Shown here: one piece after another, positions 4,547-5,457 of the stretch
Layout of the letters: each line of letters opens with the position of its first letter
How positions within the stretch are numbered: position 1 is the stretch's first letter
Virus record (IMG/VR): IMGVR_UViG_2690316142_000010
From: a virus
Taxonomy: Duplodnaviria > Heunggongvirae > Uroviricota > Caudoviricetes
Direction: 5' to 3' (one strand)
Length of the DNA stretch: 6,883 nt
The notes under the pieces: generated by a model
What the model was told of the DNA's origin: nothing
Databases searched by the model: none
What the model saw: only the letters and a program-made list of their open reading frames with translations
Position numbers and translations under genes: made by a program

Positions 4547-5305
4547 CTCGGCACAAGCGGGGAGAAAATACCGTTACTCAGTACAGCGAATACCTGGACT
4601 AATCGACAAACATTCAGCGGTGGCCTTTCTGGTGAACTATCCGGCAATGCTTCTACAGCTGCAAAATTAAAAACTGCCAGGAAAATAAGCAATGTGGCTT
4701 TTGATGGTTCCTCCGATATCACATTAAAAGCAAGTCATGTTGGTGCGTTTGCCTTAGGGAAAACAGGAAGCACCGTTGCGAATGATAAAGCAGTTGGATG
4801 GAACTGGAGTAGCGGAGCCTATAACGCAACTATTAGTGGTGCATCAACGTTAATTATTCATTTTTATATGGGAGAAGGAAGTTGTCCTGCAGCTCAGTTT
4901 CGGATTAATTATAAAAATGGCGGTATTTTTTATCGTTCAGCCCGTGATGGTTATGGTTTTGAAGCCGACTGGTCCGAATTTTACACCACCAGAAAACCTT
5001 CAGCAGGAGATGTTGGTGCACTGCCGTTATCTGGTGGTCAACTGAATGGTGCACTGGGTATCGGAACATCCAGTGCTCTTGGCGGTAATTCGATTGTATT
5101 GGGTGATAATGACACGGGCTTTAAACAAAAAGGCGATGGTAATCTGGATGTTTATGCTAATAACGTCCATGTTATGCGCTTTGTCTCCGGAAGCATTCAA
5201 AGTAATAAAACCATAAATATTACGGGACGTGTTAATCCCTCGGATTACGGTAACTTTGATTCCCGCTATGTGAGAGATGTCAGACTTGGCACACGAGTTG
5301 TTTAG
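4529..5305 (+). CDS. Tail fibre protein C-terminal variable cassette (Sv-type), 5'-less silent copy; in-frame TAG at 5303-5305, frame continues to TAA 5453-5455
   Basis: Frame is open from 4529 inside the crossover site; ...FSGGLSGELSGNASTAAKLKTARKISNVAFDGSSDITL is a typical side-tail-fibre motif. Track ORF 4694-5305 starts at GTG. No constant N-terminal region is present upstream (the invertase pseudogene is there instead). Confidence 0.7.
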   Translation, partial: NLGLRELGTSGEKIPLLSTANTWTNRQTFSGGLSGELSGNASTAAKLKTARKISNVAFDGSSDITLKASHVGAFALGKTGSTVANDKAVGWNWSSGAYNATISGASTLIIHFYMGEGSCPAAQFRINYKNGGIFYRSARDGYGFEADWSEFYTTRKPSAGDVGALPLSGGQLNGALGIGTSSALGGNSIVLGDNDTGFKQKGDGNLDVYANNVHVMRFVSGSIQSNKTINITGRVNPSDYGNFDSRYVRDVRLGTRVV

Positions 5306-5457
5306 ACCATGAAGAAAGGCGTGATGTATGAAAAATCAGGCCATGTAATCACGGGGCTTGGTATTATCGGTGAAGTCGATGGTGATGATCCGGCAGTATT
5401 CAGACCAATACAAAAGTTAATTAACGGAACATGGTATAACGTATCGCAGGTATAATC

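Follow-up and report, generated by a model that had tools for sequence, protein, structure and literature searches.

A lineage-fixed amber codon in an invertible tail fibre cassette of a defective Shigella sonnei prophage

The amber codon that interrupts a tail fibre cassette in a 6,883-nucleotide stretch of prophage DNA (IMG/VR record IMGVR_UViG_2690316142_000010; the whole stretch is referred to hereafter as the window) is a real, single-base pseudogene lesion of an ordinary kind that is fixed in the Shigella sonnei lineage. It very probably represents a nonsense lesion in an invertible cassette of a defective lambdoid prophage, a lesion that left the cassette non-functional and was fixed neutrally. 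In the mechanism that we propose, a C-to-T change at 5303, which converts CAG (Gln) to TAG, would be a fixed loss-of-function mutation in one of two alternative side tail fibre cassettes. These cassettes are carried on a Gin/Pin-type invertible segment of ~2.95 kb, and the one with TAG would lack a complete distal tip even when it is expressed. The mutation appears to have had a single origin, very recent relative to the prophage, and was probably then carried along in the S. sonnei clone. The type of switch is already known, having been described in Escherichia coli ST131, and the lesion is visible in public annotation as split open reading frames (ORFs). The features on which the analysis is based are listed in Table 1.

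Table 1. Features of the fibre switch in the window
Feature	Position	Strand	Remark
N-terminal stump of Din-family serine DNA invertase (pin)	4284..4490	-	68-codon ORF
26-bp Gin/Pin-type crossover site, TTATCTAAAACCTCGGTTTACGAGAA	4521..4546		joins constant and variable fibre parts
Variable C-terminal fibre cassette A (Mu S / P2 gpH type)	4529..5302	+	258 sense codons before the stop
Amber codon TAG	5303..5305	+	from CAG (Gln) via a C>T transition at 5303
49 stranded codons and TAA, terminal part of the conserved fibre tip domain	5306..5455	+	
Tail fibre assembly chaperone gene (tfa) cognate to cassette A	5458..5991	+	intact
Tail fibre assembly chaperone gene cognate to cassette B	6020..6547	-	intact; Caudo_TAP, E 7.9e-37
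3' remnant of fibre cassette B, 96 codons	6549..6837	-	severed from its 5' part and the fibre constant region
Left end of IS3-family insertion sequence (TGAGGTAGCCTGAG...)	6838..6883		from flank comparison

The ancestral glutamine codon and the distribution of the amber allele

An earlier note on this DNA had described a fibre frame that stops at TAG 5303-5305 and stays open for another 49 codons to TAA 5453-5455. Translation of 4502-5458 confirmed this description, with 49 sense codons at 5306-5452 before the second stop. Upstream of TAG, the frame is open as far as TAA 4526-4528, and two entries of the ORF list, 4694-5305 and 5309-5455, share it. An open run of 49 codons past a stop is expected with a chance of 6.6% from base composition, and 7.6% of the inter-stop intervals in the window are at least that long; openness past the stop is therefore weak evidence alone, and the case for a nonsense mutation rests on homology, which we judged to be decisive. 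The same note had also likened the end of the post-stop peptide to the C-terminus of the opposite cassette, and 13 of the last 17 residues are indeed identical. A scan against Rfam gave no RNA family at the TAG codon or nearby.

The closest comparisons are provided by two IMG/VR contigs. Contig L034 (IMGVR_UViG_2698536312_000006) and the window share every base but one in a stretch of 1,479 bp that reaches from the crossover site through tfa; the exception is 5303 (T in the window, C in the contig). With the same single exception, contig L033 (IMGVR_UViG_2693429508_000014) is identical over 1,204 bp. Both contigs are nearly identical to the S. sonnei 53G locus (99.94% for L034 and 99.97% for L033, over more than 6 kb), and thus essentially the same prophage exists with an intact cassette. 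The single difference from L034 over the whole of the shared stretch supports the claim, put forward in the earlier note, of a single nonsense mutation in a cassette that is otherwise intact. In L033, the 5' part of cassette A is replaced to the left of the equivalent of window position 4792, and the replaced part is followed by an additional tfa-like gene, which points to a different or multi-cassette switch arrangement. An IMG/VR pattern scan around the stop, in which the first base of the codon was left free, matched 13 contigs; seven had CAG, six had TAG, and none had any other codon.

In E. coli NCTC86 and OZ040035, a homologous cassette occupies the expressed position and the codon is CAG. 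The fibre coding sequence of both is uninterrupted and ends two bases before tfa (RefSeq annotation). At the DNA level, cassette A and the cassette expressed in NCTC86 are 98.5% identical; their proteins differ by three substitutions, a one-codon deletion, and the change of Q to a stop. The post-stop tail is identical at 49 of 49 residues to the C-terminus of the intact NCTC86 fibre. Gln is found at the position of the stop in all nine of the longer protein homologues (from E. coli and E. albertii), as well as in Mu S'. Among the proteins, the NCTC86 and OZ040035 genes, and the IMG/VR contigs compared, no homologue outside the S. sonnei allele terminates at the position of TAG. Rather than all ending at the equivalent position, an outcome for which the earlier note had allowed, the homologues carry CAG or Gln. 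The stop is not conserved among homologues, as a site of read-through or natural suppression would be; a sense codon lies at the same position in close relatives and the rest is collinear, as is typical of a nonsense pseudogene.

All 20 of the S. sonnei loci that were retrieved, from 17 assemblies (complete genomes from different platforms among them), have TAG, and 10 of these loci had been found via the neighbouring tfa protein and thus independently of the stop. The cassette coding sequence (4530-5455), post-stop tail included, is invariant across these loci; because the S. sonnei clone is so young, this invariance is uninformative on selection either way. The window itself equals an S. sonnei locus of the CP023645 type, the one departure being an internal duplication that includes an IS fragment (2374-3112).

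Some pipelines call the stranded tail as a separate ORF of 48 amino acids (5309-5455), which is separately callable only when the stop is present and is listed in ~2,200 blocks of the assembly collection. This 48-aa product and its 203-aa counterpart each occur on at least 1,000 contigs. They bear S. sonnei names, e.g., Q3Z104_SHISS from strain Ss046, and databases name the stranded tail "putative tail fiber protein (GpH) [Shigella sonnei]". The 48-aa ORF was considered as a genuine small gene and rejected: no Shine-Dalgarno-like sequence precedes its ATG at 5309 (cgagttgtttagaccATG), the tail matches the intact fibre C-terminus at every residue, and the ORF stands on its own only in the TAG lineage. 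Downstream of the stop, a rare variant of the 48-aa tail (P0006, S. sonnei, two contigs) has the non-synonymous change D27E, which, sparse as the evidence is, fits with drift.

An exact 81-mer around TAG was present in none of 5,426 complete E. coli genomes, a collection without S. sonnei. This count first suggested a private mutation or an error, an idea that was overturned by exact-protein look-ups, in which the allele proved to be widespread in S. sonnei. An exact-pattern scan of species-representative genomes for both alleles gave no match; that set holds one genome per species, and the cassette is strain-variable.

The fibre tip and the invertible segment

Cassette A lies here in a promoterless, silent position beside the invertase stump. 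It matches Pfam gp37_C (E 1.3e-7) and, among known structures, those of Mu S/S' (PDB 8JU3, E 6.7e-55) and Mu S (PDB 5YVQ, E 5e-16). The 5YVQ alignment crosses the stop, pairing cassette 225-300 with Mu S 424-502, and it places TAG at about residue 452 of the 504-residue Mu S and the post-stop tail at ~453-502. Because the alignment runs across the stop, TAG cuts inside a conserved tip domain and not at a domain boundary. The alignments to 5YVQ and 8JU3 both cross the stop position and confirm homology to tips of the Mu S / P2 gpH type; the homology extends to the terminal RP.QK.INGTWYN motif, and residues R51, P52, Q54, and I57-N63 are invariant in a 10-sequence alignment of the tip. The 67 residues spanning the stop are 91-94% identical to gpH of viable P2-like phages. 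TAG removes the last 49 residues of the tip domain, the predicted chaperone-binding distal part, and the truncated fibre is probably unable to form a functional tip. According to a report on Mu that cites the 5YVQ study (PMC9608196), its assembly chaperone binds the distal fibre, is required for folding and trimerisation, and remains on the virion. The tfa gene cognate to cassette A encodes a protein with a Caudo_TAP domain (Pfam PF02413, E 4.8e-34), and 4,765 blocks of the assembly collection list a protein identical to it.

Two sets of cassette and chaperone are opposed in the window, A with its tfa at 4529-5991 (+) and tfa with B at 6020-6837 (-), and the two tfa genes form an inverted repeat of 159 nt. 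The crossover site has exactly the sequence published as Phi4_3prime for E. coli EC958, and window 4517-4541 is where the inversion junctions overlap when S. sonnei genomes are compared. The TAA at 4526-4528, which closes the silent cassette A frame upstream, is located within this 26-bp site. Flipped genomes differ only at 4520 (A>G), 4526 (T>G), and 4529 (A>T), all in the outer half-site, which is then of the Phi4_5prime type. Exchange of the outer half-site on inversion thus turns TAA into GAA and fuses the cassette in frame to the constant part. The fused junction in flipped genomes reads ...VIEYLGLRELG..., as it does in NCTC86.

Inversion is directly visible between S. sonnei genomes. A 2,950-bp segment is inverted between strain 53G (L008) and CP044151 (L012), with both flanks swapped and reversed and with junction overlaps of 25 bp at both ends (L008 7209-7233 and 10134-10158). 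Crossover sites in inverted orientation are present at both ends of the segment in 53G; the window keeps the left one alone. Moreover, both orientations occur within one S. sonnei assembly, GCA_900457235.1, where they lie at the two ends of contig UGZB01000001.1 (L010 and L011). Of the 20 loci, five have a silent cassette A and a cassette B joined to the constant part, for a fibre of 918 amino acids; in four, the fused cassette is A, and the product, truncated to 875 amino acids, is followed by the 48-aa ORF (CP044151 and CP026802 have cassette A in the expressed orientation); the remaining 11, the window's type included, have an IS3-family element that begins at window 6838 and cuts B.

Where cassette B continues into the 918-aa fibre gene, as in 53G, identity with the window ends at 6837. 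The orfA of the insertion sequence (MSRKTQRYSKEFKA...) begins just past the window end, and genes with HTH_Tnp_1 and rve domains begin ~20 bp past it in L005-type loci. The element truncates cassette B, and neither the fibre constant part nor the second crossover site is left at the window locus. Because the element removed this second site, the segment in the window cannot invert and cassette A is locked in its silent position; its silence is permanent in the window and is not a fixed property across S. sonnei. In every S. sonnei locus, gene calling gives the chaperone gene cognate to B a product of 175 amino acids.

The invertase stump keeps the start of the catalytic domain (residues 11-68 match positions 2-69 of the 145-position Pfam Resolvase profile PF00239, E 4.6e-15). 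The remainder is missing, and RefSeq annotates the homologues of the stump in E. coli as incomplete recombinase. No intact serine invertase gene adjoins the segment, where only the 68-codon stump is found. Since inversion persists though the adjacent invertase is reduced to 60-68 amino acids, a trans-acting invertase elsewhere in the genome must act. The locus is a degenerate member of the Din-family (Gin/Cin/Pin) tail-fibre switches that depends on such an enzyme. Three direct copies of a ~118-nt tfa 3' end are found at window 1576-1693, 3071-3188, and 4120-4237; the third abuts the truncation point of the invertase, which suggests that the invertase was cut by recombination with the repeat. 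Rfam gave a match to IS009 at 3134-3337 on the minus strand (129 bits).

Prophage decay and the explanations for the stop

The window represents what is left of a lambdoid prophage next to trpA/ompW. Its genes run from a Rha regulator through tfa fragments, a SAM methyltransferase gene, and a truncated recombinase gene to a first fibre cassette, a convergent pair of tfa genes, and the other cassette; the annotations of E. coli EC958 (ST131) and NCTC86 show the same order. The tail tip gene J, a single coding sequence in E. coli NCTC86, is broken in S. sonnei into overlapping ORFs of 513 and 547 amino acids (L008, L010, L012, and L013; e.g., L008 12816-15994), and the S. sonnei prophage has received IS1, IS3-family, and ISSso6 insertions. 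A truncated invertase, a split J, IS insertions, and an IS-cut cassette B are all signs of relaxed selection. The earlier note had offered decay of the silent copy as one reading of the stop; decay is borne out, but the prophage as a whole is decaying, and the cassette is not silent in the four loci in which it is flipped to the expressed position.

Pseudogenes are known to accumulate in S. sonnei, a pathogen that forms a young clone. The prophage has lost the ability to build virions, so that no selection against TAG is to be expected, and its fixation was probably neutral; for a fibre gene that has no virion to serve, in so young a clone, neutral fixation is the economical explanation. Parts of the fibre module may not be fully inert, as some strains retain both tfa genes and the 918-aa fibre in intact form and inversion of the segment continues.

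Several observations elsewhere in the window bear on its history. A partial ISSso6 element (IS110 family) of 739 bp (2374-3112) lies between two copies of a 756-bp module that consists of a tfa fragment and the 5' part of the methyltransferase gene (1618-2373 and 3113-3868). Other S. sonnei genomes hold a single copy of this module, from which the second copy in the window differs by 17 mismatches clustered at 3151-3436. The chimeric methyltransferase/ISSso6 ORF at 1922-2488 was sought by exact look-up in public assemblies, and none was on record. The duplication (1618-3868) could be a strain-specific rearrangement, the result of recombination with another prophage, or an assembly artefact. 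At the left of the window, Rfam matches to the isrK Hfq-binding RNA (391-465, + strand, 72 bits) and to the C4 antisense RNA (489-576, + strand, 76 bits) lie directly upstream of the Rha-family gene at 627-1184. Together, 391-576 and the Rha gene look like an antisense-controlled antirepressor module similar to immI of P1/P7, apparently intact.

If the true base at 5303 were C, the gene would be intact and the stop no more than a sequencing or assembly error, a possibility that was raised in the earlier note and that gains some appeal from the single base that separates the window from the intact alleles. It is refuted by the recurrence of T at 5303 in all 20 loci, from 17 independent assemblies, and in six IMG/VR contigs, as well as by the abundance of both split products (at least 1,000 contigs each), and its chance appears vanishingly small. 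Amber read-through, whether due to leaky termination or to a Gln suppressor tRNA of the supE type, would still yield a full-length fibre of ~924 amino acids. With Gln as the ancestral residue, supE-type suppression would restore the exact ancestral protein, and the 49 downstream codons and the cognate tfa gene are intact; the youth of the mutation, however, explains the intact tail as well. Moreover, the tRNAs encoded in the window and in five neighbouring loci of 16 kb are tRNA-Arg and tRNA-Met, neither of them a suppressor; the stop is conserved in no homologue and bears no sign of a programmed event, and the cassette in the window has neither promoter nor constant part, its frame being closed upstream by TAA 4526-4528 and the opposite side being cut by the element at 6838. 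Amber suppressors are known as laboratory alleles and are rare in natural enterobacteria, and a literature search on natural amber suppressors in Shigella found nothing relevant. We consider read-through very unlikely.

An adaptive stop would require that the truncated fibre, or the 48-aa peptide from ATG 5309, has a function for the host, e.g., in blocking phage receptors. A precedent exists in the StfE2 chimera of e14, which arises from PinQ-driven inversion in E. coli K-12 and was reported to block phage receptors (PMC12529663); fibre cassettes of cryptic prophages can thus have a host-level function that is switched by inversion. The continued inversion of the segment in S. sonnei and the fixation of the allele in the clone are in keeping with this idea. 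On the other hand, truncation removes the conserved tip, the chaperone- and receptor-binding end, and the ATG at 5309 is not preceded by a recognisable ribosome-binding sequence. The fibre constant part is severed by the insertion sequence in 11 of the 20 loci, which would be unexpected for a selected function, and fixation in a young clone that accumulates pseudogenes needs no selection. A selected role for the stop is therefore highly improbable. Retention of the 875-aa product, possibly with the 48-aa peptide, for an effect on the cell surface or on phage susceptibility comparable to that of the phage-exclusion system of PinQ and StfE2 in E. coli K-12, or else suppression of the amber codon to the ancestral Gln, would likewise be given very little credence as a broader alternative.

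The nonsense lesion, which was probably fixed neutrally, has little importance alone, as it adds just another pseudogene to a genome well known for the decay of its genes. Nonetheless, it has practical consequences for annotation: the S. sonnei entries of 203, 48, and 875 amino acids that public databases present as "tail fibre proteins" all derive from a single broken gene, which should be annotated as a pseudogene. The C/T difference at 5303 provides a clean lineage marker that separates the S. sonnei prophage copy from near-identical intact copies. The locus also illustrates that Gin/Pin-type segments go on inverting long after their own invertase and coding capacity have been lost, which is relevant given that inversions in cryptic prophages have now been linked to phage defence.

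Comparison with known fibre switches

The closest known system is prophage Phi4 of E. coli EC958, of which the element described here is the S. sonnei version; Phi4 contains an invertible fibre segment of 3,106 bp (Forde et al. 2014, PMC4134206). Its invertase, EC958_1582, is truncated and without the helix-turn-helix domain, and inversion is presumably catalysed in trans by the invertase of another prophage (PMC4134206). Phi4 resembles the S. sonnei locus in its chromosomal position (the trpA/ompW side), gene order, 26-bp crossover site, and invertase truncation, and the first 810 nt of the invertase-adjacent cassette are 98.5% identical. In contrast, the last ~150 nt of the Phi4 cassette belong to a different module without the stop, the segment is longer than the 2,950 bp found in S. 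sonnei, and it is the S. sonnei element that has the amber codon and the extra IS damage.

The same general design is found in the G segment of Mu (S/U and S'/U', with Gin), the C segment of P1 (with Cin), and the P segment of e14 (with Pin): opposed sets of cassette and chaperone that are invertible, a crossover site inside the fibre coding sequence, and an adjacent serine invertase gene. Cassette A is, in addition, homologous to Mu S and S'. Unlike those segments, the one described here has an invertase stump, a nonsense codon in A, and an IS-cut B, and unlike in Mu, it belongs to the side-fibre gene of a lambdoid prophage rather than to a Mu-type fibre gene. The gpH genes of P2-like phages (e.g., those of Yersinia phage L-413C, Peduovirus P24B2, and Escherichia phage pro147) encode the C-terminal 67 residues that span the stop position at 91-94% identity and are followed by tfa, but there the module is fixed, not invertible, and uninterrupted.

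A last parallel is offered by the stf frameshift of laboratory lambda PaPa, reportedly a finding of Hendrix and Duda from 1992. In that case, a point lesion near the 3' part likewise truncates the side tail fibre and leaves the downstream tfa gene intact; there, however, the lesion is said to be a frameshift in a viable laboratory phage, whereas in S. sonnei it is a nonsense codon in a defective prophage.
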